Assembly (NCBI GenBank): GCA_036493875.1
Contig: DASXPB010000050.1
Location: 14,577 to 78,576 of the forward strand
DNA: 64,000 bases
Origin: Thermoanaerobaculia bacterium
GTDB taxonomy: Bacteria; Acidobacteriota; Thermoanaerobaculia; UBA5066; Gp7-AA6
Reading direction: 5' to 3'
Below, in pieces: positions 15,353 through 39,043 of the stretch; the first letter of the stretch is position 1, and every line of letters begins with the position of its first letter. Both the position numbers and the translations under genes were made by a program. The notes beneath the pieces are model-generated. The model had not been told where the DNA came from and did not search any database. It worked only from the letters and a program-made list of their open reading frames with translations.

Positions 15353-17818
<2,466 letters not shown>

Positions 17819-17827
17819 GAGGACTCC

Positions 17828-20248: not shown

Positions 20249-20259
20249 CGTCTGACTCC

Positions 20260-22644: not shown

Positions 22645-22669
22645 GGCGTCCGTCCTTTCCCTCTGAAGG

Positions 22670-25084: not shown

Positions 25085-25086
25085 GG

Positions 25087-27516
25087 TCAGACCTCCACCC
25101 TCAGGGCCTCCTGGGGATCGAGGTTCGCCGCGCGCCGCGCCGGGATCGCGCACGCGAGCAGCGCGACGAGCAGGAGCAGCACGCCGACGACGGCGAGTGT
25201 CACCGGATCGTGCGTGCGCGTCTCGAAGAGGACGCTCGACAGGACCCGGGAGAGCGCGAGCGCGGCGACGAGCCCGAGGGCGAGACCCGAGAGCGCCAGG
25301 GCCATGCCCTCGCGGAGCACGAGCCGACGCACCGCCGCGCGGTCCGCGCCGAGCGCGATCCGCACGCCGATCTCCCGCGTGCGCCGCGCGACCGAAAAGG
25401 AGATCACGCCGTAGACGCCGATGGCCGCGAGCAGCAGGGCCGCGGCGCCGAACACGCCGACGAGGAGGGTCAGGAAGCGCGGACCCGCGACCGTCTCGGC
25501 GACCACCTCCGTGAGGGGCTGCATGTCCGAGATGGCCTGGTTCGGGTCCAGGCGGTGGATCGCGGCGCGCGCGGACGCGGCGAGGGCGGTCGGGTCGCCC
25601 TGCGTGCGCAGGTAGAACTTGAGCGAGCCGCGCGGGAAGATCGACATGGGGACGTACATCGTGGCGAACGGCGTCTGGCCGAGCCCCTCCTGCCGGACGT
25701 CGCCGACGACGCCGATGACCTCGAGGCGCTGCTTCCCCCCGAAGACCAGGCCCTTGCCGATGGGATCGGCATCGCCCCAGAGCGTGCGCGCGAGCTTCCG
25801 ATTGACGAGCAGGACGGTCTTCTCCGTCTCGATGTCCGAGTCGGTGAAGTCGCGTCCCCGGAGGATGGGGATGCCCAGGGCGGAGAAGTACCCCGGGCTC
25901 ACGATGATCGCACCGCCCGGCGCCTTGTACTTCTCGAGGTCGGGCCGGCCCTCGACGAGCACGGGGTAGGGCTCGCCCCCGCCGTGCAGCGGGAGGGTCT
26001 TGCTGAGGCCCGCCGCGGCGACGCCGGGGAGGGCGCGGAGCGCCGCGAGCATCCGCGCGCGGTACGGCCCGTCCTTCTCCGCGTTGTACACGTCCGACGG
26101 CACGACGACCGAGAGCGTCAGCACGGATTCCGCGCGGAGGCCCGGGTCCGCGTGAGTCAGGCGCCAGAAGCTGCGCACGAGGAGTCCGGCGCCGACGAGG
26201 AGCGCGACGGCGAGCGTGATCTCGCCGACGACCAGCCCTCGCCGCAGCGAGCGCGCGGCGCGGGAGTCGGTGCCTCCGCGGGCACCGGAGCCCTCGAGAG
26301 CACCGCGCACGCTGCCGCGAGCGGCGGCGAGCGCGGGGAGCAGGCCGAACGCGATGCCGGTCGCGACGGAGAGGAGGACGGCGAAGAGAACGACGCCGGA
26401 GTCCATGCGGATCCCCGAGGCGCGGGGGACGTGACCGCCGGCGAAACTCATCAGCCCGTCGATCCCCCAGCGGGCGAGGAGCAGGCCGAGCAGGCCGCCG
26501 GTGAAGGACAGCAGCAGGCTCTCGGTGAGCAGCTGCCGGACCAGGCGGCCGCGCCCGGCGCCGAGCGCCGCGCGGATGGCGATCTCGCGCCGGCGCACGC
26601 TCGCGCGGGCGAGCAGCAGGTTGGCGACGTTGACGCAGCCGATCAGCAGGACGAGGGAGACCGCGCCGAGGAGGAGGGCGATCGGCTTGCGGACGTCGCC
26701 GGTCACGGCGGTCGCGAGCGGAACGACGAGCGCGTGCTCGAAGCCCTTGTTGCTGTCCGGGTATTGCTGCGCGAGCCGCGCATAGAGCGCCTCGATGCCC
26801 GCGCGCGCCTGCGGGAGCGTCGCCCCGGGCGCCAGCCGCCCGACGACGTCGAGCCAGCGGATCTCGCGCCGGTGCGGCGTCGAGTCCTCGCCCAGGTTGG
26901 AGAGCGGCATCCAGAGGTCGACCTCGGCCGACGGGAACTCGAAGCCCGGCGGCATCACGCCGACGACCTCGAACGGCGTCCCATCGAGGACGAGCGGCCG
27001 GCCGATCATCGAGCGGTCCCCGCCGAAGCGGCGCTTCCAGAGCGACGTCGAGATGACCGCGACGTGATTCTTGCCCTCCCGGTCGTCGTCCGCGGTCAGG
27101 AACCGCCCCGCGGCGGCCGGCATCCCGAGCGTCTCGAAGAATGCTCCGTCGACATTGGCGGCCGGCAGCCGCTCGGGCTCCCCGGCGCCGGTCAACGAGG
27201 CCGTGGAGAGCCCGGGGAAGTACGTCCACGCCGACGCCGAGGCGAGTCCCGGGTGCGCGGCCTTCAGGTCCTCGATGTCCTGAGGCGAGAACGTCGGGCG
27301 CGCGACGACCGTGTCGGGACGGACGTGTCCGATGCGGACGAGACGGTCGGGGTCGCGGAAGGGGAGCGGTCGGAGCAGGACGCCGTTCGCGATGCTGAAG
27401 ATCGCCACCACCGATCCGATGCCGAGCGCGAGCGTCGCGAGAACCAGGGCGGTGAACCCGGGATTCTTGGCAAAGGCGCGCCGTGCGTAACGGAGGTCGT
27501 CCATCAGCGTGGTCAT
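25087..27516 (-). CDS. ADOP-type duplicated FtsX/MacB-like ABC permease, paralog P2 (809 aa)
   Basis: Track ORF 25087..27693 trimmed to ATG at 27516: [41 protein letters not shown]. Signatures [32 protein letters not shown] and [17 protein letters not shown]. Ends ARRAANLDPQEALRVEV. Strong GAAGGAGGA SD upstream. Confidence 0.9.
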   Translation of the reverse strand: MTTLMDDLRYARRAFAKNPGFTALVLATLALGIGSVVAIFSIANGVLLRPLPFRDPDRLVRIGHVRPDTVVARPTFSPQDIEDLKAAHPGLASASAWTYFPGLSTASLTGAGEPERLPAANVDGAFFETLGMPAAAGRFLTADDDREGKNHVAVISTSLWKRRFGGDRSMIGRPLVLDGTPFEVVGVMPPGFEFPSAEVDLWMPLSNLGEDSTPHRREIRWLDVVGRLAPGATLPQARAGIEALYARLAQQYPDSNKGFEHALVVPLATAVTGDVRKPIALLLGAVSLVLLIGCVNVANLLLARASVRRREIAIRAALGAGRGRLVRQLLTESLLLSFTGGLLGLLLARWGIDGLMSFAGGHVPRASGIRMDSGVVLFAVLLSVATGIAFGLLPALAAARGSVRGALEGSGARGGTDSRAARSLRRGLVVGEITLAVALLVGAGLLVRSFWRLTHADPGLRAESVLTLSVVVPSDVYNAEKDGPYRARMLAALRALPGVAAAGLSKTLPLHGGGEPYPVLVEGRPDLEKYKAPGGAIIVSPGYFSALGIPILRGRDFTDSDIETEKTVLLVNRKLARTLWGDADPIGKGLVFGGKQRLEVIGVVGDVRQEGLGQTPFATMYVPMSIFPRGSLKFYLRTQGDPTALAASARAAIHRLDPNQAISDMQPLTEVVAETVAGPRFLTLLVGVFGAAALLLAAIGVYGVISFSVARRTREIGVRIALGADRAAVRRLVLREGMALALSGLALGLVAALALSRVLSSVLFETRTHDPVTLAVVGVLLLLVALLACAIPARRAANLDPQEALRVEV

Positions 27517-27556
27517 CGGTCCTCCTTCGAAACCTCGTCGGGAAGCACGCCGATCC

Positions 27557-30118
27557 TCATTCGGTGCGTAGGGCGACGATCGGATCGACCCGCGCCGCGC
27601 GGCGGGCGGGGAGAAACGCGGCCAGCGCGGCGATCGCCAGAAGGAGAGCCGACACCGAGAGCAGCGTGACGGGATCGTCGGCGCGGATGCCATAGACCAT
27701 GCTCGCGACGGTCCGGCCGAGCGCGAGGGACGCGCCCAGACCCAGGATCAGGCCGAGCGCCGCCGGTCGCATCCCCTGCGCGACGATCATGCGGACCACG
27801 TCGTCCCCGCGGGCGCCGAGCGCCATTCGGATTCCGATCTCGTTGGTGCGCTGCGCGACCGAGTACGCCAGGATGCCGAACAGGCCGATCGCGGCGAGGG
27901 CGAGCGCCAGCGCACCGAAGAACGTCAGAATCTCCGCGTACACGCGCTCGCGGGCCAGGGTCGACCGCGACCGCGCCGTCTGGGTCCCGATCTCGGTGAC
28001 GGGGAGATTGGGGTCCAGATCCCTCACGGCGGCCTGCACGCCGGCAGCCAGGCTCGCCGGGTCCTGAGCGGAACGGAGCGCGAAGTACATCTCGTCGACC
28101 ATGTCGGACTCCGACTCCTGACGCCAGGGCGTGTAGAGCAGCGGCGCAATCTCGCTCCGCTGGTTCTCGTACTTCGTGTCGGCGACGACTCCGACGATCT
28201 CGACTTCGCGTTTCTCGTCGGCGTCCTGGATCCGCTGGCCGACCGGGTCGGCGTTCGGAAAGTAGCGGCGCACGAACTCCTGATTGACGACGGCGACGCC
28301 CGGCGCCTTCTCGCCGTCGCGGGCGTCGAAGGCGCGTCCCCGGAGCTTCGGGATCTCGAGGGCCTGAAAGTAGTTCTCGCGGATCGCCTGCCGGTTGACG
28401 TTGTGGAACGGGGCGGTCTGGGCGTTCTCTCCCGGCAGCAGGACGTTGACGTTCCAGCTGTACTCGGCGATTGGAGGAATGCGGCTGAACGTCGCCTCGC
28501 GCACGCCCGGCAAAGCGTCCAGCCGCGCCAGGAGGCGGTCGTCGAACTGCAGGAGGCGCGCGCCGGTGTATCCGACCTGCCCCGGCCGGAGCGTGAAGAC
28601 GAGCAGCTGTTCCTGGTTGAAGCCGAGGGGGACACGGCTCAGGTTGTGGAGGGTTCGGAGCAGCAGTCCCGCGCCCGCGAGGAGGAGCACGGACAGGGCG
28701 ACCTGAACGACCACCAGCCCGCCTCCGAGGCGGGTGCGTGTCACGGTGCGGCGGTTCTGTTTGAGCGCGGTGACCAGGTCAATGTCGCTCGCGCGCCAGG
28801 CGGGAGCCGATCCGAAGAGCAGAGCGGTCAGTCCGGTCAGCCCCACGGTGAAGCCGAGGACGGACCAGGTCAGCCCGCCCGAGATGCCGCTCGGAAGAAT
28901 CCCGACTTCGCCTTCGGAGAGCGCGGCCATAGCGCTCGTGCCCCAGAGCGAAAAGATCACTCCCGCAACGCCGGCGAGGGCCGCGATGAGGAAACTCTCC
29001 GTGAGAAGCTGACGGACCAGGCGTCCCCGGCTCGCGCCCAGGGCGAGGCGGGTGCGGATCTCGGCGGAGCGCAGCGCCGAGCGGGCGAGCATCAGGTTCG
29101 CGAGGTTGGCGCAGGCGATCAGCAGCACGACGCCGACGACCGCGAAGAGCGCCGCGATGCCGGTCGAATAGCGCTGACGGCGCTCCATCAGTCCCTGTCC
29201 GCCGGCGCGTACGATCAGCCGCGGGTAGTCCTTCGGCGCGAGGCGCGCGGGCTCGTTGTCTCGGGTAGGCGGCGGCATGACGTCCAGCGCGGCAACCTGG
29301 AAGACGCCGGCGAGGCTCTCGAGCGCCTGCTCCTCCGTCGCGCCGGGCGCGAGGCGTCCCATGACGTTGAGAAACCACCGACTCCGTCCGTCCTTCGGGG
29401 TCAGGGCGCTCGCATCGCCCAGCAGGGCCGATTCGAACGCGAGCGGCACCGTGACCTCGGCGCGATAGTCCACCTGCAGGGTGCCGACGAACGCGGAGGG
29501 ATTCACGCCGACGACCGTGAACGCCAGACGGTTGAGCGTCAAGGGACGTCCGACGACCGCCGGGTCGCCGCCGAATTGTTCCTGCCAGAACCGGTGACTG
29601 ATCACGACGACCGGAGCGGCGCCGGGCCGGTCGTCGGACTCGACGATCTCGCGGCCCAGAATCGGCCGGACGCCGACGCCCTCGAAATAGGTGCCCGTGA
29701 CCGCCTGACCCCGGACGACCTGCGCGCGATCGTGCGCGACGGCCGTGATCTCGTAGAGCGGCGCGAACGCGAAGAAGTCGGCGAGCGGACCGTTCGGCGC
29801 CGCGGCGCGCGCCTGGCGCATGCGGTCGAAGACGTCGTACCGGAAGATCGACGCGCCCGTCGTGCCGGGCGGCGTCTTCGTGGAGGGGCCGCGCCGTCCG
29901 GACGTCCGGAAGGGCTCGCCGGCCCTCCACTCGAACAGGACCAGCCGCGCGGGCTCCCGAACCGGCAGCGAACGGAGAAGGACCGTCTCGCAGACGCCGA
30001 AGAGCGCGGTGTTGGCGCCGATGCCGAGGCCGAGCGTGAGGACCGCGAGCGCCGTGAACCCGGGATTGCGAACGAGCCAGCGCGCCGCGTAGCGCAGATC
30101 CTGGACTACGCCGCTCAT
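27557..30118 (-). CDS. ADOP-type duplicated FtsX/MacB-like ABC permease, paralog P1 (853 aa, largest)
   Basis: [41 protein letters not shown]. Signatures [32 protein letters not shown] and VAQRTNEIGIRMALGAR. Ends [16 protein letters not shown]. The ATG shares one base with the stop of the ATPase gene (TGATG at 30116-30120). Confidence 0.92.
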   Translation of the reverse strand: MSGVVQDLRYAARWLVRNPGFTALAVLTLGLGIGANTALFGVCETVLLRSLPVREPARLVLFEWRAGEPFRTSGRRGPSTKTPPGTTGASIFRYDVFDRMRQARAAAPNGPLADFFAFAPLYEITAVAHDRAQVVRGQAVTGTYFEGVGVRPILGREIVESDDRPGAAPVVVISHRFWQEQFGGDPAVVGRPLTLNRLAFTVVGVNPSAFVGTLQVDYRAEVTVPLAFESALLGDASALTPKDGRSRWFLNVMGRLAPGATEEQALESLAGVFQVAALDVMPPPTRDNEPARLAPKDYPRLIVRAGGQGLMERRQRYSTGIAALFAVVGVVLLIACANLANLMLARSALRSAEIRTRLALGASRGRLVRQLLTESFLIAALAGVAGVIFSLWGTSAMAALSEGEVGILPSGISGGLTWSVLGFTVGLTGLTALLFGSAPAWRASDIDLVTALKQNRRTVTRTRLGGGLVVVQVALSVLLLAGAGLLLRTLHNLSRVPLGFNQEQLLVFTLRPGQVGYTGARLLQFDDRLLARLDALPGVREATFSRIPPIAEYSWNVNVLLPGENAQTAPFHNVNRQAIRENYFQALEIPKLRGRAFDARDGEKAPGVAVVNQEFVRRYFPNADPVGQRIQDADEKREVEIVGVVADTKYENQRSEIAPLLYTPWRQESESDMVDEMYFALRSAQDPASLAAGVQAAVRDLDPNLPVTEIGTQTARSRSTLARERVYAEILTFFGALALALAAIGLFGILAYSVAQRTNEIGIRMALGARGDDVVRMIVAQGMRPAALGLILGLGASLALGRTVASMVYGIRADDPVTLLSVSALLLAIAALAAFLPARRAARVDPIVALRTE

Positions 30119-30879
30119 CAGCTCACCCGGTACCCGCTCTCCTTGAGCTGCTCCTCCGAGTGGGCGCGCTCCTCGCCCTTCTCCTCCTCGACGACGCGCC
30201 CGTCGAAGAGGTGGATCGAGCGTCCGGCGTGTTTGGCGAATCGCTGATCGTGCGTGACCATGCAGATCGTGGCGCCCGCGCGGTGCAGGTCCTGGAGCAG
30301 GCTCATCACGGCCTCGCCGTTGACCGAGTCCAGGTTTCCGGTCGGCTCGTCGGCGAGAAGGATGAGCGGCGAGCCCGCGATGGCGCGGGCAACCGCGACG
30401 CGCTGCTGCTGACCTCCCGAGAGCTGCGACGGGAAGTGCTTCATGCGGTGCGCCATGCCGACCTTCTCGAGGGACTCCTGCACGCGCTTCTTGCGCTCGT
30501 GCGCCGGCATCCCGCGGTAGGTCAGCGGCAGCTCCACGTTCTCGTACACCGAGAGGTCGCCGATCAGGTTGAAGCTCTGGAAGATGAAGCCGATCTCGCG
30601 GTTGCGGATGCGCGCCCGCTCCGACAGCGAGAGCGACTCCGCGGGCTTGCCGTTCAACCAGTACTTGCCCTCCGTCGGCGAGTCGAGAAGCCCCAGCAGG
30701 GACAGCAGCGTGGACTTGCCGCAGCCCGAGGGACCTGCGATCGAGACGTACTCCCCGTGGGCGATCTCCAGGTGAACGCCCGAGAGCGCGTGCGTCTCGA
30801 CCTCGTCGGTGAAAAACACCTTCGTCACACCGTCCAGCTTGATGACCGGATGTCCGTTAGAGCTCATGCCTTCCCTCAC
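30118..30879 (-). CDS. Stand-alone ABC transporter ATP-binding protein (MacB-type NBD), copy 1 (253 aa from GTG 30879; alternative ATG at 30867)
   Basis: Walker A GPSGCGKST, Q-loop FIFQSFNLI, signature LSGGQQQRVAVARAI, Walker B LILLADEPTGNLD, H-loop MVTHD. Unusual charged C-terminal tail EEEKGEERAHSEEQLKESGYRVS. Starts 6 nt after the stop of the adaptor gene. Confidence 0.93.
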   Translation of the reverse strand: MREGMSSNGHPVIKLDGVTKVFFTDEVETHALSGVHLEIAHGEYVSIAGPSGCGKSTLLSLLGLLDSPTEGKYWLNGKPAESLSLSERARIRNREIGFIFQSFNLIGDLSVYENVELPLTYRGMPAHERKKRVQESLEKVGMAHRMKHFPSQLSGGQQQRVAVARAIAGSPLILLADEPTGNLDSVNGEAVMSLLQDLHRAGATICMVTHDQRFAKHAGRSIHLFDGRVVEEEKGEERAHSEEQLKESGYRVS

Positions 30880-30885
30880 TTCTCC

Positions 30886-32190
30886 TCACTTCAGGCGGAC
30901 CCTGTCGTATGCGTCCCACGCGCTCATGTCCGAGAGAATCACCTTGTCGCCGGGCTTCAGCCCCTCGACGATCTCCACCGTGTTCACCGAACTCTTCCCG
31001 AGCTTGACCTTCACCCGCGTCGCCTCGTCGCCGTCCTCGTTCACCCGGAACAGGCCGACCTGGCTCTTCTCCTGCCCGAACGCCGGCCGCCCCACGTAGA
31101 GCACGTCCTTCAGCCGGTCCAGCTCGATGGTCCCGTCCACCGAGAGGTCGGGGCGGGCGCCCATCGGGAGCTCGCCCTCGAGAGTGACGTCGACGGTGAC
31201 CGTTCCGTTCTGCACAGCCGGGTCGATGCGCGCGACTTTTCCGGCCACGAGGCCGTTGCGGGTGTCGATCGAGGCCGGCTGGCCGATCTGGACGTCCTTC
31301 GCCTGGGTCTCGGCGATCTTGAGCTGCGCCTTCAGGTGGGTCGGCTCGGCGACCTTGGCGATGGTCGTGCCGGGGGCGACCTGCTGGCCGACCTGCACGG
31401 GCAGCTCCTGGAGGACGCCCGGGATCCCCGCCCGCACGTGAAGCGCCTCCTTCTGCTCCCGCTTGAGGTTCGCGAGGGCCCGAAGCTGATCGACCGTCGC
31501 CTCCTGGACCGCGACCTGCGCCTTGGCGGACTCGTCGACGGTCGCGACGCGCTTCTCCTCGATGGCGTTGCGCGTGGCGAGCTCCTCGGCGCGGACCTTC
31601 GAGAGCTTCAGGATGAGCGCGGCGACGAGGCCCTCTTTGTAGAGTCCCTCGTTCGTCTCGGCCTGCAGCTCGGCCTGGTGGTAGTCGGAGCGTACGGTGG
31701 CCGCCGCCGCCTGCTGGTCCATGACGTCGCGCTGGGCCTTCGCCTTCACGTTGGCGAGCTCGGCCTGGGCGGCGCGGAACTGCGACTCGGACTCGAGCGC
31801 CAGGCGCTCGACCTCCGGGTTCGACATCTCGACGAGGATCGAGTCGGGCTTGACCGGCGCGCCCGGCAGGATGACGAGCCGCTCCACGCGCCCGTTGGTC
31901 TCGGCGGAGATGTACCGGATCTCCTGGGGCACGAGGGTGCCGGGTCCGCGAACCTGGCGCAGCATCGGTCCCCGCTTGACCGTATCCATCCAGACCGTGC
32001 TCTTCTCGACCGTCGGCGCGGCGGGCTTCAAGCGGGAGAGACCCAGGGTGATGAGGAGAACCGCGACCGCTCCGGCGGCCGCGAGCACGAGCCGCTTCTT
32101 GCGGCGCTTCTCGGAAACGTCTTCGCGGATGATGTCCACGGGGATCCCTAAGGGCGAGAAGCGTGCCAGCCGTCGTTCATCGTAAGTCAT
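30886..32190 (-). CDS. MacA/HlyD-family periplasmic adaptor (membrane fusion protein)
   Basis: Track ORF 30886..32199 starts at TTG; ATG at 32190 (MTYDERRLARF...) is more likely. Single N-terminal TM (LVLAAAGAVAVLLITLGL). Lipoyl-like segment (GRVERLVILPGAPVKPDSILVEMSNPEV). Long coiled-coil (ESESQFRAAQAELANVKAKAQRDVMDQQAAAATVRSDYHQAELQAE...KVRAEELATRNAIEEKR). C-terminal beta-barrel/MP-like part. Sits directly upstream of the NBD plus FtsX-type permeases. Confidence 0.88.
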   Translation of the reverse strand: MTYDERRLARFSPLGIPVDIIREDVSEKRRKKRLVLAAAGAVAVLLITLGLSRLKPAAPTVEKSTVWMDTVKRGPMLRQVRGPGTLVPQEIRYISAETNGRVERLVILPGAPVKPDSILVEMSNPEVERLALESESQFRAAQAELANVKAKAQRDVMDQQAAAATVRSDYHQAELQAETNEGLYKEGLVAALILKLSKVRAEELATRNAIEEKRVATVDESAKAQVAVQEATVDQLRALANLKREQKEALHVRAGIPGVLQELPVQVGQQVAPGTTIAKVAEPTHLKAQLKIAETQAKDVQIGQPASIDTRNGLVAGKVARIDPAVQNGTVTVDVTLEGELPMGARPDLSVDGTIELDRLKDVLYVGRPAFGQEKSQVGLFRVNEDGDEATRVKVKLGKSSVNTVEIVEGLKPGDKVILSDMSAWDAYDRVRLK

Positions 32191-32281
32191 TGGGGCCAAA
32201 GGGGTCCGAGCCTCGGAGTCCTCCCCGCCCTGGCCGCTCCCGGGACGCGGGTGTCCGATTCCGAACGCCTGGGCGCTTCCT

Positions 32282-33337
32282 TCAGCTCCGCCCGTGGATC
32301 TTCATGTCCACGAGGTCGTCGACCGACACGTTCTTGTAGGCGGCCTTCATCTTCTTCACGTAGTCGATCGAGACGCCGTGAATCTTCATGCTCACCAGAT
32401 CGTCCGCGGGGACGTCGCGGTATCCCAGGCCCTGGAGCTCGCGGACGTAGTCCGGCGTCACGCCGTGGATCCGCATGCTGACGAGGTCGTCGACGGAGAG
32501 GCTCTTGTAGCCGAGGGACTGGAGCTCCCGGACGAACTCGGGGGTGGCCTCGTGGATCCGCATGCTGACGAGATCGTCGGCCGGGAGATTCGCGTAGCCG
32601 AGCGCCTTCAGAGCGCGCACGAACTCGGGGGTCGCCTCGTGGATTCGCATGCTGACGAGGTCGTCCGCCGTGAGGTTCGTGTATCCCAGGGACTTCAGCT
32701 CTCGGATGAAGTCGGGGGTCGCCTCGTGGATGCGCATGCTCACGAGGTCGTCGACGGGGAGAGAGGAATAGCCCAGCGCCGTGAGCTCCCGGATGAACGC
32801 CGCGTCCGCGCCGTGGATCCGCATCGAGAGCAGGTCGTCGAGCGGGACCTTCTTGTAGCCGAGCGCGTCCAGCTCCTGGATGAACGCGCGAGAGACGTCG
32901 TGGACCGCGAGCGAGAAGAGCTCGTCCGCGTCGGGCTTCCGGTAGCCCATCTTCGTCAGCGCGGCGAGGTACTCGGGATTCTCCGAGAAGGAGAAGCTGC
33001 CCGAGCCCCCCGAGGCGCCGAGCGCGCCGTCGAAGGTGATCGTCCCGGCGTCGCGCACGAGCTGGAAGTGCGCCGGAGCCTCGGCGGTTCCGGCGGGCCG
33101 CGTCAGGCCCTGGAAATCGGAGAGCTTGTAGTCGTCGGAGCTCGACCAGTTCCCATGCCCGTCGGCGCGCCGCTTCATCGTGAGCTCGATCCAGCCGTCC
33201 TTGTCGAAATCCAGGATCCAGCGGCCGCTCGTGCTCGTGCTCGAGGGAGGCGCTGGCGAGCCGGTGGGGAGTCCCGCGACCGTCAGGGGCGCGGCGAGCA
33301 GGAGCAGGGCGAGTCCGAGGCGGAGGGGCGTCTTCAT
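32282..33337 (-). CDS. Secreted protein (351 aa) with an N-terminal unknown domain and 7.5 copies of a 29-aa DDLVSMRIHGxTPEFVRELxxLGY repeat
   Basis: Track ORF 32282..35098 trimmed to ATG at 33337, which overlaps the blaR1-like stop as ATGA. Signal peptide MKTPLRLGLALLLLAAPLTVAG. The repeats share their consensus with the C-terminal domain of the upstream M56 protein. I recognise no known family for the repeat. Confidence 0.8.
   Translation of the reverse strand: MKTPLRLGLALLLLAAPLTVAGLPTGSPAPPSSTSTSGRWILDFDKDGWIELTMKRRADGHGNWSSSDDYKLSDFQGLTRPAGTAEAPAHFQLVRDAGTITFDGALGASGGSGSFSFSENPEYLAALTKMGYRKPDADELFSLAVHDVSRAFIQELDALGYKKVPLDDLLSMRIHGADAAFIRELTALGYSSLPVDDLVSMRIHEATPDFIRELKSLGYTNLTADDLVSMRIHEATPEFVRALKALGYANLPADDLVSMRIHEATPEFVRELQSLGYKSLSVDDLVSMRIHGVTPDYVRELQGLGYRDVPADDLVSMKIHGVSIDYVKKMKAAYKNVSVDDLVDMKIHGRS
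32285..32926 (-). repeat. In-frame tandem 87-nt (29-aa) coding repeats, 7 full units plus 1 truncated
   Basis: Units: DELFSLAVHDVSRAFIQELDALGYKKVPL / DDLLSMRIHGADAAFIRELTALGYSSLPV / DDLVSMRIHEATPDFIRELKSLGYTNLTA / DDLVSMRIHEATPEFVRALKALGYANLPA / DDLVSMRIHEATPEFVRELQSLGYKSLSV / DDLVSMRIHGVTPDYVRELQGLGYRDVPA / DDLVSMKIHGVSIDYVKKMKAAYKNVSV / DDLVDMKIHGRS. Confidence 0.9.
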
Positions 33338-35256
33338 GGGGCGTTCTCCTCTTCTTTGTCTCCGGTCGACCAGCGGCGCGCGTGGATGCGCCGCTCGACC
33401 AGGTCGTCGGGCGAGAGCCGCTCGCCCGCGCGTTGGTTCGTGGAACGGATCCATTCCGGCGTGACGCCGTGGATGCGGAATGCCACCAGATCGTCGGGCT
33501 CGAGCGAGGCGTAGCCGAGTGCGCGGATCGCCGCGACGAACTCGGGCGTCACGCCGTGGATGCGGAAGGCGACGAGGTCGTCCGCCGAGAGATCGCCGAG
33601 GCCCTGGCTGCGCAGGGCGCGCGCGAACTCCGGGGTCGCGCCGTGGATGCGCAGAGCGACCGCGTCGTCCGCCGACAGGCGTTCGTAGCCGGCCTCGCGG
33701 AAGCCCTGGACGAATTCCGGGTCGGCGCCATGAATGCGCAGCGCGACCGCGTCGTCGGGCGAGAGCGTCCCGAAGTAGGCCTGGAGACTCCGCGCCGACT
33801 CCGGCGTCACACCGTGAATGCGGAGGGCGACGAGGTCGTCGAGCGGGACCTGGCCGTAGCCGAAGATCGCCGACATCTCCTTCGCGTACTCGGGGGTCAC
33901 GCCGTGGATGCGCAGGGCGACGAGCTGGTCCGGCGAGGAGCGCGCATAGCCGAGCGCGGCGATCTCGGCGATGAACTCGGGCGTCACGCCGTGGATGCGG
34001 AACGCGACGAGATCGTCCGGCGACAGGAGTCCTCGCACGGCCGGAGCAGGGCTGGCCTCGCCGCCCCGGGGCGCAGGCGCCGGCCTCCCGGTCCGCGAAG
34101 TCGCGGGAGCCGCCGGAGTCGGAGCCGTCGAAGAGGCCGCCGGCGTGGGAGAAGACGGGGGAGCCGGTGCGGCCGCGGGCGCCGTCTCCGGCGTCGGAAC
34201 CCGGGCGGCCGCTCCCAGGGCCAGGACCGCGCCCGCGATGAGGAGGCCGGCCGACGCCACGAGGCGGGGCGTGGCGGCCCCGGCGAGCTCGCGTCCCCGG
34301 GTCCCGCCGGGCGCGACGAGACGCGCGATGCGGTTCCAGAGGCGTCCGCCGTCCGCGGCGGCGGTGAGGACGGGGGCGATCACGGCGCGTCTTTGGGCCA
34401 GCTCCAGGAGCGCCCTCGCGTGGGCCGCGGCGTCGCCCGTGGCCTCGACCGCGAGGTCGTCGCAGGCGTTCTCGCGCTCGACCCGGATGCAGGAGGAGAC
34501 CCACCAGATCGCGGGGTGGTAGAAGAGCAGCGTCTCGGCGGCCGCCTGAAGCAGGCTGACCAGGGCGTCCCTTCGCCGGATGTGCGCGAGCTCGTGCGCG
34601 AGGAGCGACTCGAGCTGGCAGGCCGGCATCCCCGTCGCGATCCCGGCCGGGATCAGCACGATCGGCCGGACCACGCCGACGACCGTGGGGACGCGGACCG
34701 CGGCCGACTCGAGCAGCCGGATCCCGCGGCGAATGCCGAGAGTCCGCGCCAGCCGGGCGAGCCGCTCCTCCCAGGCCGAGTCCGCGCGGGCGGTCTGCCG
34801 GCGGGTCAGACTTCGCGCGGCCACGCAGCCCCCGAAGAGGCGCAGCGAGAAGGCGCAGACGCCGGCGAGCCAACCGGCCACGATCCACGGGGCGGCCTCG
34901 GCCAGGGCATCCGTCGACGGCGCCGGCGCCGTCGAGGAGTCGGGCGCAGGGGAGGCCTCGGGTGCGCCGCCCACGGCTCCCCGCGTCGCGCGAGATCCCG
35001 GGACCGCAAGGGCGACTCCAGCGGCGGCGGCCTCCCTCGACCGGAGTCGGGCGAACGTAGCGACGGGAAGCGTGCACAGGATCGCGAGCGCCGCGCACGC
35101 GGCGGAGTACCGCGCCCGGGCCGACGCGCGGCGGAGAAGTCGGTTCGCGATCGCGAGCAGGACGGCGACCCCGGCTCCCTGCCAGAGGAAGTGGATCAAC
35201 GCGAGCGCGGCCGAACGGGATGCCGGGTGGGTGGCGAAGGCGGCGAGCAGTCTCAT
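33334..35256 (-). CDS. BlaR1/MecR1-family M56 zinc-metalloprotease signal transducer with a non-canonical repeat sensor domain (640 aa)
   Basis: N-terminal TMs, HEXXH in LLAHELAHIRRRDALVSLL, and downstream FYHPAIWW...ERENACDD typical of Peptidase_M56. An Ala/Pro-rich linker is followed by 7.5 repeats (DDLVAFRIHGVTPEF...LGY) in place of a penicillin-binding sensor domain. ATGA overlaps with blaI upstream and the repeat protein downstream. Confidence 0.88.
   Translation of the reverse strand: MRLLAAFATHPASRSAALALIHFLWQGAGVAVLLAIANRLLRRASARARYSAACAALAILCTLPVATFARLRSREAAAAGVALAVPGSRATRGAVGGAPEASPAPDSSTAPAPSTDALAEAAPWIVAGWLAGVCAFSLRLFGGCVAARSLTRRQTARADSAWEERLARLARTLGIRRGIRLLESAAVRVPTVVGVVRPIVLIPAGIATGMPACQLESLLAHELAHIRRRDALVSLLQAAAETLLFYHPAIWWVSSCIRVERENACDDLAVEATGDAAAHARALLELAQRRAVIAPVLTAAADGGRLWNRIARLVAPGGTRGRELAGAATPRLVASAGLLIAGAVLALGAAARVPTPETAPAAAPAPPSSPTPAASSTAPTPAAPATSRTGRPAPAPRGGEASPAPAVRGLLSPDDLVAFRIHGVTPEFIAEIAALGYARSSPDQLVALRIHGVTPEYAKEMSAIFGYGQVPLDDLVALRIHGVTPESARSLQAYFGTLSPDDAVALRIHGADPEFVQGFREAGYERLSADDAVALRIHGATPEFARALRSQGLGDLSADDLVAFRIHGVTPEFVAAIRALGYASLEPDDLVAFRIHGVTPEWIRSTNQRAGERLSPDDLVERRIHARRWSTGDKEEENAP
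33337..34023 (-). repeat. In-frame tandem about 87-93-nt coding repeats (7 full units plus 1 truncated) forming the BlaR1-like C-terminal domain
   Basis: SPDDLVAFRIHGVTPEFIAEIAALGYARSSP / DQLVALRIHGVTPEYAKEMSAIFGYGQVPL / DDLVALRIHGVTPESARSLQAYFGTLSP / DDAVALRIHGADPEFVQGFREAGYERLSA / DDAVALRIHGATPEFARALRSQGLGDLSA / DDLVAFRIHGVTPEFVAAIRALGYASLEP / DDLVAFRIHGVTPEWIRSTNQRAGERLSP / DDLVERRIHARR... Confidence 0.9.
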
Positions 35257-35642
35257 TTCTTTTCCCCCTCGAGCGAGTCCAGGTAGGCCCGGATCCGCGA
35301 GATCTCTTCGGCGGAGGTCTTCCGGGAGCTCAACGCCTGCTGCACGAGCAGCGCCGCCGACCCGCCGAAGGCGCGCTCGAGGAGATCCCCGAGCAGCTGA
35401 CGCTGAGTCTGCTCGGCGGGGATCCGCGCCGCGTAGACGTGGGCCCGCTGGCTCTCGTCGCGGCGAACGAGGCCCTTCTCGGCCATGATCTGCAGGAGCT
35501 TCAGAACGGTGGTGTAGCCGAGCTCCCGGCCGCGGGCCAGGCGGTCGTGGACCTCGCGGACCGTGCTGGGGCCGCGCTCCCAGAGAACCCCCAGGATCTC
35601 GAGCTCCGCACCGGTCGGTCGCACCGTGGTCTTGCGCGTCAC
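35253..35642 (-). CDS. BlaI/MecI/CopY-family winged-helix transcriptional repressor (129 aa)
   Basis: Track ORF 35253..35846 trimmed to the in-frame GTG at 35642, preceded by GGAGGA at 4-nt spacing. VTRKTTVRPTGAELEILGVLWERGPSTVREVHDRLARGRELGYTTVLKLLQIMAEKGLVRRDESQRAHVYAA... matches the Penicillinase_R fold pattern. The stop overlaps the blaR1-like ATG (ATGA). Confidence 0.88.
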   Translation of the reverse strand: MTRKTTVRPTGAELEILGVLWERGPSTVREVHDRLARGRELGYTTVLKLLQIMAEKGLVRRDESQRAHVYAARIPAEQTQRQLLGDLLERAFGGSAALLVQQALSSRKTSAEEISRIRAYLDSLEGEKK

Positions 35643-35675
35643 GCGTTCCTCCGAATCCTTATACGAACGAGTTAG

Positions 35676-35691
35676 TACGAGGTTTTTCGTA
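35676..35691. promoter_or_regulatory. Candidate BlaI-family operator: dyad TACGA-N6-TCGTA, with an extra TACGA half-site at 35662-35666
   Basis: Read directly from the sequence: ATACGAACGAGTTAGTACGAGGTTTTTCGTAGACT. It sits 34-49 nt upstream of the blaI GTG, in the locally AT-richer divergent intergenic region. BlaI/MecI/CopY repressors bind TAC(A/G)-type inverted repeats. Confidence 0.4.
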
Positions 35692-35767: not shown

Positions 35768-37324
35768 ATGAAGGAGCTCGCCGAGCACTGGCGGTTCCGG
35801 CCCCGCTGGGTCGAGACCGTGTTCCTGCTGCTGGTCTGCTCCGCACTGGCGGCGGCTGCCGCGGGCGCCTTTCCGACCCTCGACGACGCGTACCTGAACC
35901 TGCTTCTCCGGGAGCACGGCTCGCAGGGCGTCTTCCTGGGGCACCAGGACCGACCGGTGCTGGCCATTCTCCTGCGCGACGCCGCGACCACCTTCGGGAG
36001 CCACTTCTGGACGTTCGCGTTCCTCGCGAACGTGGTCCTCTGGACGACGGTCGGGATCCAGACCTGCATCCTGTGGCGGATGATGATGCCGGCCTGGTCG
36101 CAGTACGCGATCGTCGCCGGGCTCCTCTCGGTCGCGCCCATCGTGGTGAGGATCCAGCTGGTGACGGCCACCGTCACGCTCTTCGGGGTGCTGAGCGTCG
36201 TCCAGGTCTACGGCGGGCTGCTGACGCTGGTGGGTGCGCTCGGACGCAACAGCCGAGGCGGCATCGCGCTCGGGCTCCTGCTGTGCGCGCTCGGCGTGCT
36301 CCTGACCGAGTACGCCGTGGCCGCGAGCTGTGCGGTCGCCGTCCTCCTCATTTTCGCCTTCCCCGAGGTCTACCGGGGCGAGCGGCGGTTCTTCCTCCGC
36401 TGCGCGGTGGCGATCCTGGCGATCGCCGCGCTGGCCTACGTCTTCTTTCTGGTGATCTCGGATCTCGGGCAGCGGCCCGAGGTGGACCCGCGCCAGCGCC
36501 TGGATCGCGCCTCGATCGAGGGGTTCCCGTTCTCGCTCCTGACGTCTCTGTGGCAGGTTCTGGTCGGCGCGTACGGCACCAGCCTCGGAAGGATCGTCCT
36601 GGAGCGGGATTCGGCCAGCTCGATCGCGGCGGTCGTCGTCGGGCTCGTCGTCGCGGCGGCCGTCGGATGGATCCTCCGGCGCAAGGAGGCGGGGGGCCTC
36701 CCGGATCCGAGACGCATCCGGATGCTTCCCCTCTTCGCGGCGGTGGTCGCGGGCGTCGTGCCCGTCGCGCTCATGCGGCCCTACTCGCCGATCGCGTTCG
36801 CGACGCGGTTCTACCTCCCGATCCTCCCGACGGCGGTCGTCCTGACTCTCGGCGCGCTGCTCTGGTGCGTGAAGCCGCGCTTCCGCCGCGTTTCGGTGCT
36901 GTCGCTCGCCTTCCTCGGCGGTACGGCCCTCTTCACCGACTCCTTCGATGCGTGGCGGCACCAGCGGCGAATGGACGCGGCCGGCCGCGTGATCCGGGGA
37001 TCGCTGGCGCCCGAGGGGCTGACCGCGGTCGTCGTGTCGTCGGAGAAGATCTGCGAGGCGCCGGACTGGTGCACCGGGCAGGCCACGCGCGCGTGGCCCG
37101 TGGAGCTCGAGGAGCGCGTATGGATCTTCGACCCGGTGGAGGGCCGTCGGATCTTCGGGAGCCGCCACGGCGCCCCGTTTCCGCCGCCCCTCGACATCGA
37201 CGTGCGGTCGGTGCGCCGAGTCGGCGTGCCAAGCCGCGTGCTGTGGCTCGAGCCGGATGGCCGGGACTTTCGCCTCGAGCCGTATTACGGGAACGGGATC
37301 GAGCCGGGCTCTCCCCAGCCGTAG
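35768..37324 (+). CDS. Polytopic integral membrane protein, possible GT-C-like glycosyl/lipid transferase (518 aa); paralog of 40037..41698
   Basis: Many hydrophobic helices. A DD pair after TM1 (AFPTLDDAYLNLLLRE), then a C-terminal soluble domain of about 130 aa. Shares blocks with the 40037..41698 product (FP..DD, DRP, LPILP, RIFGxR, RLEPY). No family is firmly recognised. Confidence 0.7.
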   Translation: MKELAEHWRFRPRWVETVFLLLVCSALAAAAAGAFPTLDDAYLNLLLREHGSQGVFLGHQDRPVLAILLRDAATTFGSHFWTFAFLANVVLWTTVGIQTCILWRMMMPAWSQYAIVAGLLSVAPIVVRIQLVTATVTLFGVLSVVQVYGGLLTLVGALGRNSRGGIALGLLLCALGVLLTEYAVAASCAVAVLLIFAFPEVYRGERRFFLRCAVAILAIAALAYVFFLVISDLGQRPEVDPRQRLDRASIEGFPFSLLTSLWQVLVGAYGTSLGRIVLERDSASSIAAVVVGLVVAAAVGWILRRKEAGGLPDPRRIRMLPLFAAVVAGVVPVALMRPYSPIAFATRFYLPILPTAVVLTLGALLWCVKPRFRRVSVLSLAFLGGTALFTDSFDAWRHQRRMDAAGRVIRGSLAPEGLTAVVVSSEKICEAPDWCTGQATRAWPVELEERVWIFDPVEGRRIFGSRHGAPFPPPLDIDVRSVRRVGVPSRVLWLEPDGRDFRLEPYYGNGIEPGSPQP

Positions 37325-37351: not shown

Positions 37352-39043
37352 TCAGCGCGCGTCCATCCTCCACCAGGCGGGATCCACGTCCTTCGGCGCG
37401 CGAGCCAGGGCGTAGCCCGCCATCATCTTGAGGCGCTCGGGCAGCGAGTACGGACCGACCCAGCAGTGGGGCTGCCGCGGCCCGAACACGATCGTGCTCC
37501 CCGAGGCGGGACTCGCGGTCGAGAGAAATCCGTCGAGGAGATGGACGGCGTCGTTCAGGTAGTACGTGTCCATGTCGCCGGTCCAGATGTGAATCTTGCC
37601 GGCGAGCTTGGGGGCGAGCTGCGCCCAGTTCTTCTGGAGGTAGGCGTTCAGGTCCGTGTGCTCCTTCCAGTACGCCGCGGTCCCGTGGTCGATCGCGCCC
37701 GTCGCGGGATCGAAGACCGGCTGGAAGTAGCCGTCCTTCCCCATCGGCCCGTAGACGGCCTGCCAGCAATCCCAGTCCTCGCCCGACCGGCCGTGGTTGC
37801 CCATCGTGCGCTCGTACTTGAGCTGCTGCTTCATCGTCGAGAGGACCATCCCGTCGGGGGCGCGCTCGCCCGGGATCGGGACGGCGAGCCAGCCACCCTT
37901 GTCCGTCTTCGCCCACGCGTTATCCCACTCGTAGACGTTGACCATCTCGAAGTAGTGGAAGTCGACGGGATCGGGGCAGTAGGTGAACGTGCCGCCGAAG
38001 ACGTCCGGATAGAAGACCTGGAGGGCGAGGGACTCCCAGCCTCCGGTCGAGCCTCCCGAGAGGATCCGCGCCCAGGGCTGCGGGATCGCGCGAAAGTGGC
38101 TCTCGATGTACGGAATCAGCTCCTCGGTGATCGCGCGCCCGTAGGGGCCCATGTTGGGGGAGTCGATCGCGTAGGAGTCGTCGTAGTACGGCGTCGGATG
38201 CTGGAAGGTGACGAACAGCATGCGCGGGAAGTGGTCCGACTTCCAGGTCGAGACGAACTCGTCGCGCTGCCGCGCGCGTTCCTTCTGGCGCTCGGTCGTG
38301 TCTCCCTCGGGCTCCGTCGGCTCGCCGAAGCCGCCGGGGGCGGACAGGGTGAAGTGGCCCTGTTCGTAGTTCACGGGATAGGAGGTCGTCGTCTTGTCGT
38401 AGTCCCGGGGAAGCAGGATCGTCGCGCCGATCAGAATCGGGCGGCCCCAGAACTTCGACAGGAGCGGGCTCTCGAAGCGGATGCGCTTGACGTATTCGGT
38501 GTCGGGCGGCATCGCGATCGGGGCGATGACGCGGTCGAGCGTGAGCCGCACCGTTCCGCCGGCGCGGGGATCGAGCGAGATCTTCTTCGGCTCGCTGTAC
38601 AGGTTCCCGGGCGAGCGGGGGAAGTCCTGGCCCTCCCACTGGTCCATGTGGAGCTTCACGTCGTGCCCGTCCGCGCGATGAAAGGTCGTGTAGACGTTCA
38701 GCACCGCCTGGACGAAGTAGTCGCCCGGCGGGAGGTCCGAGAGATGGTCGAGGGGATAGCCCTCGCTGTTCGCGTCGATGGCGGCGGTCTGGCCCGGAGC
38801 GAATCCGGTGACGTCCTCGCCGAAGAAGGGGACCGAGCGGTACTGGCCGCCGGTCTTGCCGAACTGGAGTCGCGGCTCGCGCTTTCCGTCGCGGGTGATC
38901 ACGACGAAGACGCGCCCGTCGACGGGCTCCTTCCGGACCGATGCGGGGTACGAGAGCTCGAAGCGCAACGGGGCGGCGGCGAGCAGAGCCGAATAGAATA
39001 AGGAAAAAAGTAAGATAAAGCTAATTTTATTAGACATACGCAC
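37352..39043 (-). CDS. Secreted alpha/beta-hydrolase of the 'putative esterase' (esterase D/enterochelin-esterase-like) type (563 aa)
   Basis: Signal peptide MRMSNKISFILLFSLFYSALLAAAP. Nucleophile elbow G-G-S-T-G in RILSGGSTGGWESLALQ. GGAGGAGG SD. Start is GTG 39043 or ATG 39037. Only 12 nt downstream of the folD stop. Confidence 0.75.
   Translation of the reverse strand: MRMSNKISFILLFSLFYSALLAAAPLRFELSYPASVRKEPVDGRVFVVITRDGKREPRLQFGKTGGQYRSVPFFGEDVTGFAPGQTAAIDANSEGYPLDHLSDLPPGDYFVQAVLNVYTTFHRADGHDVKLHMDQWEGQDFPRSPGNLYSEPKKISLDPRAGGTVRLTLDRVIAPIAMPPDTEYVKRIRFESPLLSKFWGRPILIGATILLPRDYDKTTTSYPVNYEQGHFTLSAPGGFGEPTEPEGDTTERQKERARQRDEFVSTWKSDHFPRMLFVTFQHPTPYYDDSYAIDSPNMGPYGRAITEELIPYIESHFRAIPQPWARILSGGSTGGWESLALQVFYPDVFGGTFTYCPDPVDFHYFEMVNVYEWDNAWAKTDKGGWLAVPIPGERAPDGMVLSTMKQQLKYERTMGNHGRSGEDWDCWQAVYGPMGKDGYFQPVFDPATGAIDHGTAAYWKEHTDLNAYLQKNWAQLAPKLAGKIHIWTGDMDTYYLNDAVHLLDGFLSTASPASGSTIVFGPRQPHCWVGPYSLPERLKMMAGYALARAPKDVDPAWWRMDAR

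Follow-up and report, generated by a model that had tools for sequence, protein, structure and literature searches.

The three genes described here, from a 64,000-nucleotide stretch of Thermoanaerobaculia DNA ('the window'), may well form an autoregulated proteolytic switch of the BlaI/BlaR1 type with a split receptor. The receptor would comprise a β domain and a solenoid of 29-residue repeats, and would be divided between a membrane protease of the M56 family and a secreted protein, termed here 'sec'. We put the chances of this reading at about even. BlaI-type switches with M56 partners ('BlaIR' systems) are a broad family, and most of their ectodomains are not identifiable (PMC13492132). The general BlaR1 mechanism and the diversity of M56 ectodomains have been published (PMC9834060; PMC13492132), as has the general idea that BlaIR systems are re-wired to signals other than β-lactams (PMC13492132). 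To these, the operon adds structure, a module that can be named, and a conserved genetic logic for a large block of unassigned BlaIR ectodomains, amounting to thousands of clusters in soil phyla. It also suggests a design that has not been described for the family: one portion of the receptor would be secreted as a protein of its own.

The operon core and its membrane protease

The core comprises three minus-strand genes in the order blaI-like repressor, M56 protease, sec, chained by ATGA overlaps at both junctions, just as originally predicted. The genes and their principal features are:

35253..35642, minus strand: blaI-like winged-helix repressor, 129 aa (Penicillinase_R, E = 5.6e-28)
33334..35256, minus strand: M56 membrane metalloprotease-transducer, 640 aa (Peptidase_M56, E = 1.7e-29)
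34582..34596, minus strand: HEXXH zinc-binding motif of M56, HELAH, residues 221-225 (HELAHIRRRD)
34459..34473, minus strand: ExxxD motif of the M56 active site, ENACD, residues 262-266
34024..34206, minus strand: Ala/Pro/Ser/Thr-rich linker past the last transmembrane helix, M56 residues 351-411 (AF2 pLDDT 38-50)
33337..34023, minus strand: M56 ectodomain solenoid, residues 412-640 (7 full units and 1 truncated)
32282..33337, minus strand: sec, secreted β-domain and solenoid protein, 351 aa (ATGA overlap with the M56 stop)
33269..33337, minus strand: predicted Sec signal peptide of sec, residues ~1-23 (read from the sequence; no lipobox cysteine)
32984..33235, minus strand: six-stranded β domain of sec, residues 35-118 (AF2 model)
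32285..32983, minus strand: solenoid array of sec, residues 119-351 (net charge -10)

The stop codon of the blaI-like gene overlaps the M56 start, and the two genes are adjacent in all of the related loci (80/80). The M56 protein matches Peptidase_M56 (PF05569) over residues 30-310, scoring 103.4 bits where the cut-off is 31. Four transmembrane helices would fit both its hydrophobic segments and the helices of its AF2 model, and the two motifs lie between helices 3 and 4. H221, E222 and H225 of the first motif, and E262 and D266 of the second, are invariant in 56 M56 homologues; ExxxD is a named active-site feature of BlaR1 (bioRxiv 10.64898/2026.08.03.742534). A profile search with the protein matched BlaR1 of Staphylococcus aureus (8EXS, E = 3.7e-9), and Foldseek matched the AF2 model to the BlaR1 cryo-EM structures 8EXQ, 8EXS and 8EXR (E = 1.4e-4). 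The alignment to 8EXR_A has TM 0.58 and rmsd 3.0 over 165 columns. The structural match is confined to the membrane/protease part.

The system resembles BlaR1–BlaI and MecR1–MecI (S. aureus, Bacillus licheniformis) in several respects: the gene for a winged-helix repressor adjoins that for a four-helix M56 zinc protease bearing the HEXXH and ExxxD motifs, a palindromic candidate operator lies at the system's own promoter, the sensor follows the last transmembrane helix and lies outside the cell, and the predicted membrane/protease fold matches that of BlaR1. It differs in that it lacks both a penicillin-binding transpeptidase domain and a β-lactamase or PBP2a target, blaI comes first in the gene order, and the ectodomain, a β domain and an α-solenoid, is shared out over two proteins, the protease and the secreted sec. 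That this is a BlaI/M56 relay lacking a penicillin-binding domain agrees with the original prediction and with Pfam and NCBIfam: Pfam finds no match to PF00905 or similar in the M56 protein, and the NCBIfam BlaR1 model NF000326 reaches 66.6 of the 400 bits that its cut-off demands, over residues 125-274 only. Identity as a β-lactam sensor-transducer (NF000326, NF033108, NF033109) was rejected, there being no transpeptidase-fold C-terminal sensor.

Other pairs of M56 and BlaI-family proteins that do not sense β-lactams are CenIR of Clostridioides difficile, BlaIR of mycobacteria and PvmSR of Pseudomonas aeruginosa. Their architecture is the one that InterPro lists most often, 'M56 followed by no identifiable domain' (PMC13492132; bioRxiv 10.64898/2026.08.03.742534). 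The C-terminal region in them is short, disordered or missing altogether, and a secreted partner is not described for them. The present ectodomain, in contrast, is a large and confidently folded repeat structure, represented by thousands of clusters, with what looks like an obligatory partner in trans.

The repeat array and the secreted protein

In each of the two proteins the DDLVxxRIH motif occurs eight times at intervals of 28-30 residues (M56 residues 414-617; sec residues 138-340), the last unit being truncated, and the motif count upholds the 7 full and 1 truncated units that had been claimed for both. Tandem Repeats Finder reports an 87-nt period in both genes. AF2 confidently predicts the array to be an α-solenoid of helix-turn-helix units. 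The M56 ectodomain, of net charge -12, is modelled as 16 helices at pLDDT 93-98, and sec as a whole at pLDDT 92 and pTM 0.82; values above 95 in the arrays favor a fold, as anticipated, rather than a disordered linker. Every unit has near-invariant positions, and sequence conservation is strong.

The repeat family comprises 5,285 clusters at 50% identity, mostly from Acidobacteriota, and it cannot be assigned to a known one, as the original prediction held. Pfam returned summed sub-threshold fragments alone, no single stretch passing, and NCBIfam gave no match to the array. The sole match in a PDB sequence search was a designed protein, HeliScrew4 (E = 0.0044). Foldseek against the PDB found nothing for sec at E <= 0.001, and for the M56 array found only the designed repeat proteins 8V2D and 4YXZ, at TM 0.14-0.25. 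TPR, Sel1, HEAT, PG_binding and TALE/mTERF-like helical repeats were considered and rejected, none giving a significant Pfam or PDB profile or fold match.

The two arrays align collinearly (46% identity, E = 4e-69), and by this comparison are old paralogues. Recent copying from one gene to the other does not fit, each array being 63-79% identical to its orthologues. Nor do the identical repeat counts support the constraint on length that was first proposed. Across 77 genomes the number of units ranges over 2-11 for M56 and 1.5-9 for sec; the two agree in just 13 and are uncorrelated (Spearman -0.13, p = 0.25), and orthologues of the window's M56 protein have one or two additional units.

Freely variable repeat number is common for spacers, and the arrays might then be structural spacers or anchors rather than ligand sensors, for instance fastening the protease and sec to the outer membrane or the cell wall, with M56 regulated from within the cell or through the state of the membrane. 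Control of this kind has already been proposed for BlaR homologues that lack an ectodomain, and M56 proteins without one are still paired with BlaI: a 326-aa protein in one of our loci (L232), and the mycobacterial and Pseudomonas cases (bioRxiv 10.64898/2026.08.03.742534). We nevertheless consider this explanation very unlikely: the very high predicted order, the near-invariance within each unit and the tight retention of the β domain, whether in cis or in trans, all speak for a specific function.

The sec protein begins MKTPLRLGLALLLLAAPLTVAG. Its predicted signal peptide (~1-23) is followed by a short Ser/Pro stretch, the β domain (35-118) and then the array; AF2 pLDDT is below 50 for residues 1-27. 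The N-terminal domain of about 115 residues noticed at the outset therefore exists, but is in fact a composite of the first three of these segments. The β domain bears a conserved signature, G-x-W ... RDAGT..F.G ... G.G.F.F. Directly behind it, at residues ~119-131, is an extra half unit, NPEYLAALTKMGY, because of which sec has eight 'TPEF-type' helices to the seven of M56. No Pfam or NCBIfam family matches sec, and no catalytic or known binding motif was found in it by Pfam, NCBIfam or Foldseek against the PDB.

Cis and proposed trans forms of the receptor

The order blaI, repeat-bearing M56, sec occurs in all classes of Acidobacteriota and in Myxococcota, the cultured carriers including Paludibaculum fermentans, Myxococcus eversor and Archangium minus. 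Co-conservation of sec with M56, on which the original prediction depended, is accordingly strong. Indeed, none of the outcomes named in advance as counting against that prediction was found: the array matches no characterised domain of known ligand specificity, sec accompanies M56 in related genomes, and the array is not predicted to be disordered.

One point had been missed. The N-terminal domain of sec had been called unrelated, whereas the β domain and array together constitute the ectodomain of many other M56 proteins. Profile searches show such M56–β–solenoid fusions to be widespread; among our loci and proteins they include L018, L061, L084-L096 and P0242-P0271. The fused ('cis-type') loci have the same blaI and the same operator as the others ('trans-type'), and differ in what follows. 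A sec gene lies downstream of none of the 12 M56 genes with a β domain in cis, and of 76 of the 85 without one (Fisher p = 4e-10, in which the 12 cis and 85 trans cases share phylogeny and are not independent). From this complementarity we read sec as the half of a split receptor that is supplied in trans.

Two other roles for sec deserve consideration. It could be a feedback partner, either a decoy that takes up the ligand of the M56 solenoid and damps the response or itself the thing sensed, the M56 solenoid binding free sec and so controlling its level. The homology and collinearity of the arrays suit this idea, as does the fact that, of the operon's conserved products, sec alone is not regulatory; the sec-like family is also abundant, and is found alone as well, as expected of proteins with a function of their own. 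But a decoy or homeostat ought to be equally useful to cis-type proteases, yet accompanies 0/12 of them, and sec differs from the M56 ectodomain by its β domain rather than by its array. We think this role unlikely.

Alternatively, sec could be the effector that is induced, neutralising the inducer as a binding or protective protein of the periplasm and leaving the M56 solenoid as the sole sensor. There is a formal analogy to bla operons, in which sensor and effector both bind the inducer (PMC13492132), β-lactamase sharing ligand recognition with the BlaR1 sensor domain. In most genomes, moreover, nothing besides blaI, M56 and sec appears to belong to the transcription unit, and in Blastocatellia there are two sec paralogues downstream, as would be expected of amplified effectors. 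Cis-type systems would then have no effector in the operon, however, and sec has no catalytic or known binding motif; this role, too, seems to us improbable. Counting against our own reading, about half of the closest sec-like genes found in reference genomes (36 of 78) have no M56 gene within 5 kb, and so the module can act without an adjacent protease.

The split receptor that we favor has a formal parallel in envelope signalling, where RseB is an accessory periplasmic protein that acts on the anti-sigma factor RseA. In both, a soluble periplasmic protein from the same operon is proposed to bind a membrane signaller and gate proteolysis of a regulator. The two are unrelated in sequence and fold, and here the sensor itself would cleave the repressor, whereas there a protease cascade frees a sigma factor.

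Repressor, candidate operator and exporter genes

The blaI-like gene starts with GTG, 6 nt downstream of GGAGGA. Residues 10-122 of its product correspond to positions 2-114 of the 115 in the Penicillinase_R profile (PF03965), which is to say its full length, at 98 bits against a cut-off of 22.6. NCBIfam CopY/BlaI models also match, but below their equivalog cut-offs. A further point against the proposed switch is that the N-F cleavage site of S. aureus BlaI is not conserved; in our own alignment the window protein has Q-A at that position. Upstream of this gene, and downstream of sec, lie the following:

35662..35691, minus strand: two tandem putative BlaI operator palindromes, TACGAAAAACCTCGTA and TACTAACTCGTTCGTA, overlapping by one base
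30886..32199, minus strand: MacA/HlyD-type periplasmic adaptor (Pfam HlyD_D23, HlyD_3), 82 nt downstream of sec
30118..30879, minus strand: MacB-type ABC ATPase (Pfam ABC_tran, E = 7.9e-34)
1..30118, minus strand: 12 tandem ADOP-type permease genes (duplicated MacB_PCD and FtsX), paralogues; the array continues past the window edge
12255..12935, minus strand: second ABC ATPase, within the ADOP array

The palindromes precede blaI, 20-49 nt away from its start codon, and each is one mismatch from TACGAA-N4-TTCGTA. When TACGAANNNNTTCGTA was sought in the 64-kb window with <=2 mismatches, these two sites were the only matches, 0.31 being expected by chance. Of the 80 related loci, 73 have a perfect TACGAA-N4-TTCGTA upstream of blaI, accompanied by a tandem second site in L001, L008 and L011, and in 72 loci the palindrome has a TTGACA box on one side and a TAnnnT box on the other. 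The window promoter, unlike most, has no TTGACA box, which also counts against the proposed reading. To judge from this conservation, the palindrome is a candidate operator at blaI's own promoter; its half-site, TACGAA, differs from the TACA of BlaR1–BlaI and MecR1–MecI.

In the mechanism that we propose, BlaI dimers would occupy both tandem TACGAA-N4-TTCGTA sites at rest and keep the operon repressed. The M56 protease would display the solenoid alone, on a flexible tether of ~60 residues, and sec, exported as a soluble protein, would dock on it and supply the missing β domain in trans. Binding, or loss, of a periplasmic ligand would change the state of this two-part receptor and send a signal across the membrane, whereupon the zinc protease, facing the cytoplasm, would inactivate BlaI, presumably by cleavage, and derepress the operon. 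In the window's lineage, transcription would probably run on into macA, the MacB-type ATPase and the ADOP (acidobacterial duplicated orphan permease) genes.

The interval between sec and macA contains no terminator-like site that we could find, and macA is directly behind sec in L008, L011 and L154 also. The association of the operon with MacA and ADOP genes holds only in the window's own lineage. Beyond it the genes behind sec are heterogeneous, and a pump output therefore cannot be generalised; the ADOP array is lineage-specific cargo outside the conserved operon core. Where the operon does continue into these genes, the most likely output is accordingly extrusion of a noxious compound from the periplasm to the outside. 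Somewhat doubtful, and offered tentatively, is a more far-reaching view: that the system represents a receptor class of new fold, in which a secreted subunit docks solenoid-to-solenoid on M56 and gates repressor proteolysis, and that it doubles as a master switch for a large set of ADOP/MacB exporters in Thermoanaerobaculia-like Acidobacteriota.

It is unusual for a single BlaI-type switch to be followed by twelve tandem ADOP copies; ADOP genes are usually described beside PadR-type regulators. For the many ADOP exporters of Acidobacteriota the operon provides a regulatory handle, a defined promoter with a candidate operator that could be used for reporters. The exporter genes themselves resemble MacAB-type and ADOP transporters, although here they are operon cargo in the window's lineage only, and they encode everything by which a MacB/ADOP exporter is recognised: duplicated permeases with MacB_PCD and FtsX domains, an ABC ATPase and an HlyD-type adaptor. 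In an 853-aa ADOP protein, for example, Pfam recognises MacB_PCD twice and FtsX twice, and where starts could be placed the gaps within the array are 3-75 nt.

A BlaI/M56 operon with a secreted partner

Three genes on one strand of the window make up the locus:

35253..35642, minus strand: blaI-like gene, 129 aa (Pfam Penicillinase_R, E = 5.6e-28)
33334..35256, minus strand: M56 gene, 640 aa (Peptidase_M56, E = 1.7e-29, residues 30-310)
32282..33337, minus strand: sec, the gene 3' of the M56 gene, 351 aa, with a typical N-terminal signal sequence

The blaI-like and M56 proteins are members of the Penicillinase_R and Peptidase_M56 families. Both the blaI/M56 and the M56/sec junctions are ATGA stop/start overlaps. 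The M56 protein and sec each terminate in eight DDLVxxRIH motifs, spaced 28-30 residues apart and with the final unit truncated, and both genes show an 87-nt period in Tandem Repeats Finder. Aligned unit by unit, the arrays are 46% identical; that of sec has an additional half unit at its start, right after an N-terminal domain in which the signal peptide is joined by a short Ser/Pro stretch to a six-stranded beta domain (residues 35-118). The original observation of three genes joined by ATGA overlaps, two of them with matching arrays, is thus confirmed, as are the stated positions. No tRNA or Rfam elements were found in the window.

The membrane part of the M56 protein is a genuine BlaR1-type protease, and not a beta-lactam sensor. 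Its HELAH (residue 221) and ENACD (residue 262) motifs are invariant among 56 homologues, and the profile of these homologues matches Staphylococcus aureus BlaR1 (8EXS, 8EXP) at E = 3.7e-9. The AlphaFold2 model (mean pLDDT 83) matches the cryo-EM structures of BlaR1 in Foldseek at E = 1.4e-4 (8EXR_A: TM 0.58, rmsd 3.0 Å). The last transmembrane helix (approximately residues 331-350) is separated from the array (pLDDT 93-98) by an Ala/Pro-rich stretch of about 60 residues with a pLDDT near 40. Whereas BlaR1 and MecR1 possess a penicillin-binding sensor domain, the M56 protein of the window has a folded repeat array instead: Pfam and NCBIfam searches found no penicillin-binding domain, and the 66.6 bits reached with the NCBIfam BlaR1 model lie far below its cut-off of 400. 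Because this defining domain was tested for and is absent, such proteins are not BlaR1/MecR1 equivalogs. By analogy with the topology of BlaR1, the array would be periplasmic, and the signal peptide on sec agrees with this placement.

The idea of a BlaR-type relay that responds to something other than beta-lactams is not new: Kurtz et al. 2026 (PMC13492132) conclude that BlaIR systems sense diverse unknown signals. In their survey, only some 6% of M56 proteins have a transpeptidase domain, proteins with no identifiable domain at the C terminus form the commonest architecture, and a BlaI gene lies near 96% of M56 proteins (PMC13492132). The re-wired relay originally proposed for this locus stands insofar as BlaI and an M56 protein without a penicillin-binding domain are present, but its general principle was already published. 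Our literature search found no paper on the 29-aa repeat or the blaI-M56-sec type of operon, nor any on the folded ectodomain family, the cis/trans split with a secreted partner, or the link to the array of ADOP genes (acidobacterial duplicated orphan permeases) discussed later. The BlaI/M56/sec finding is real, robust and more general than was first thought, and the beta-domain/solenoid receptor module is probably new.

Fold, distribution and age of the repeat module

The sec model (pLDDT 92, pTM 0.82) comprises the beta domain followed by 16 helices, forming eight helix-turn-helix units. In both proteins the repeats are thus predicted to be a folded array rather than a disordered linker. Searched against Pfam and NCBIfam, the array gives only summed sub-threshold fragments, and a sequence search of the PDB gives nothing natural. 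In Foldseek searches of the PDB, sec has zero matches at E <= 0.001, and the M56 array matches only computationally designed helical repeat proteins (TM 0.14-0.25). Weak lipocalin-like matches to the beta domain (E = 0.065, TM about 0.1-0.17) were dismissed as noise. Used alone as a query, the beta domain retrieved only short, frameshifted fragments, and no new architecture. The array is folded according to these models and has no known relative in Pfam, NCBIfam or the PDB, as the first reading of the sequence had suspected.

The module is widespread. At E <= 0.001, a profile search of 1.84 billion representative proteins gave 5,285 clusters, of which 1,978 also pass E <= 1e-30. Homologues of sec number over 1,500, nearly all of them called hypothetical; those of the M56 protein that share its M56-plus-array design exceed 1,300 and are annotated only as M56 peptidase or blaR1. 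Carriers occur in all classes of Acidobacteriota and, by genome label, in Gemmatimonadota, Zixibacteria, Eisenbacteria, Krumholzibacteria, Rhodothermia/Rhodothermales and Myxococcota; cultured examples include Paludibaculum fermentans, Myxococcus eversor, Archangium minus and Cystobacter fuscus. One Lys/Asn-rich M56 protein (P0245, 904 aa) has an EHEKIH motif, a beta domain, an IHNV repeat core and many more units than the window arrays; its composition and array indicate that the module reaches well beyond high-GC Acidobacteriota.

Distant M56 arrays are without the RIH motif. Metal binding by the single His of each unit was set aside because myxobacterial and Eisenbacteria arrays have Asn, Ala, Gln or Thr in its place. 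M56 genes with such divergent arrays (L072 9896..12322, from an Eisenbacteria MAG, and L073 9599..11920, from C. fuscus) have no downstream sec; in L072 the next gene encodes an L,D-transpeptidase that carries a peptidoglycan-binding domain. The arrays are mildly acidic (net charge -2 to -5 per 100 residues), a real but mild feature to which we give little weight as a pointer to cationic ligands.

The equal repeat number of the two window proteins had been taken to signify a length constraint, and this fails. Among 77 M56/sec pairs, the M56 arrays have 2-11 units and the sec arrays 1.5-9; no more than 13 pairs have equal counts (within half a unit), the two counts show no correlation (Spearman -0.13, p = 0.25), and orthologues of the window M56 protein have one or two units more. 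Judged by these counts, the equality seen in the window genome does not reflect a conserved constraint. Recent copying and gene conversion were ruled out for the two arrays, their mutual identity being 46%, versus 63-79% to their orthologues. Paralogue signatures, Ser-Met in sec and Ala-Phe/Leu in M56, are kept across genomes. By these measures, the duplication behind the two arrays is old.

Conserved core, gene neighbours and putative operator

The M56 alignment was used to retrieve 80 genomic loci. Where the M56 gene bears repeats, it almost always stands between blaI on its 5' side and a gene for a stand-alone repeat protein on its 3' side, all on the same strand; sec is thus strongly co-conserved with M56. 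In Blastocatellia two stand-alone repeat proteins follow (L002, L003, L004, L006, L013, L030, L066 and L081 have two sec paralogues 3' of M56), the second of which has largely lost the RIH motif and kept the repeat profile. The genes after sec are mixed—Ser/Thr kinase, S15 peptidase, glycosidase, aldehyde dehydrogenase, L,D-transpeptidase or a convergent gene. A conserved downstream target gene was rejected for this reason, and the conserved unit is blaI-M56-sec.

In the window, 82 nt without a terminator-like site separate sec from an HlyD/MacA-type adaptor gene, which is followed by a MacB-type ATPase gene and the permeases:

1..30118, minus strand: twelve tandem ADOP-type duplicated MacB/FtsX permease genes; the array reaches the window edge and may be longer
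12255..12935, minus strand: second ABC ATPase, within the ADOP array

All pump genes lie on the same strand, with gaps of 3-75 nt where starts can be placed. The order blaI-M56-sec-macA-ABC-ADOP recurs in the closest relatives (L001, L008, L011, L154), and in L028 and L045 an ADOP gene directly follows sec (gaps of 22 nt and 52 nt, from ORF coordinates). Most other genomes have no ADOP gene after sec. From this gene order we infer that the switch controls an extrusion battery in the lineage of the window; such an output fits an envelope-stress or xenobiotic signal.

A 16-bp palindrome, TACGAA-N4-TTCGTA (only 12 specified bases), occurs 20-60 nt upstream of blaI in 73 of the 80 loci. In 72 loci it is framed as TTGACA-N-TACGAAnnnCTTCGTAGTAnnnT, and so sits in the spacer of a sigma-70-type promoter. 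Across 72 loci of different classes, and even phyla (L001-L081; ~25-60 nt upstream of blaI), the context TTTCGTTGACA-N-TACGAAnnnCTTCGTAGTAnnnT hardly varies, an unusual degree of conservation for non-coding DNA. In the window, two copies lie next to each other (35662..35691, one mismatch each), a tandem form shared with its closest relatives L001, L008 and L011, and the promoter is without the TTGACA box. No further copies with up to 2 mismatches occur in the 64-kb window (0.31 expected by chance), and there are no extra copies within 10 kb of the system in 81 loci. Within the stretches searched, this confinement to the blaI promoter supports autoregulation of the operon through the putative operator.

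Upstream of blaI, and divergent from it, lies a 518-aa polytopic membrane ORF (35768..37324, plus strand) without a Pfam match; the two share a 125-bp intergenic region that contains the operator. This ORF is absent in the closest relatives L001 and L154, where an esterase-like gene directly precedes blaI. This gene, conserved in the closest relatives immediately upstream of blaI and on the same strand, encodes about 563-565 aa:

37352..39043, minus strand: window (weak Pfam Esterase match)
7819..9510: L001 (ORF matched by size and position only)
7827..9524: L154 (weak Pfam Esterase match)

The beta-solenoid module in cis, in trans and alone

The N-terminal domain of sec, originally considered unrelated, belongs with the array to the ectodomain of other M56 proteins. 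The M56 proteins of loci L018 and L061 carry, as their ectodomain, a sec-like beta domain and then the array, and these loci are without a separate sec gene. The full sec profile, with its beta domain, also matches many proteins of 700-1,100 aa, starting at about their residue 360, and Pfam identifies these as M56 peptidases. A second locus search was enriched for this 'cis' type, and unique M56 genes were then counted in 153 loci.

M56 ectodomain type and sec genes downstream
Beta domain plus array (cis): 12 genes; sec downstream in 0 of 12
Array only: 85 genes; sec downstream in 76 of 85 (some of the other nine are truncated by the end of a contig)

The genes counted are not independent of one another phylogenetically, and so the associated probability (Fisher's exact test, p = 4e-10) overstates the evidence. 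Cis-type loci share blaI and the operator with the array-only loci. On the simplest reading, the beta domain is required and can come in cis or in trans, with sec as the other half of the M56 ectodomain. The order in fused proteins is M56-beta-array, not M56-array-beta-array, so simply splitting a fused gene would not yield the window arrangement. We propose, from comparative genomics, that the split receptor would gate proteolysis of BlaI.

Searching with the sec alignment gave 78 new loci (L156-L232) with the closest sec-like genes in reference genomes.

Context of sec-like genes in the 78 loci
Sec adjoining an M56 gene: 36
Sec without M56 within 5 kb: 36
Cis type: 2
Unclassified: 4

Some orphans (L156, L169, L177) are 60-62% identical to the window sec, and nearer to it than many operon copies. 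An adjacent M56 gene is thus not required for the beta-solenoid protein to function, a point that weakens the co-receptor reading somewhat and leaves room for feedback and effector models. In one recurrent orphan context (L232 6175..10841, L083, L210, L225, L231), the sec-like gene is convergent to a cluster of blaI, a 326-aa M56-like protease without an ectodomain, and an outer-membrane barrel of the CarboxypepD_reg/TonB-dependent type; this arrangement may represent a third form of the sensor, split completely. Duplicated forms also occur: L090 (5956..9898) has two tandem cis-type M56-beta-solenoid genes, and P0262 (569 aa) carries two complete beta-domain-plus-solenoid modules in one secreted protein.
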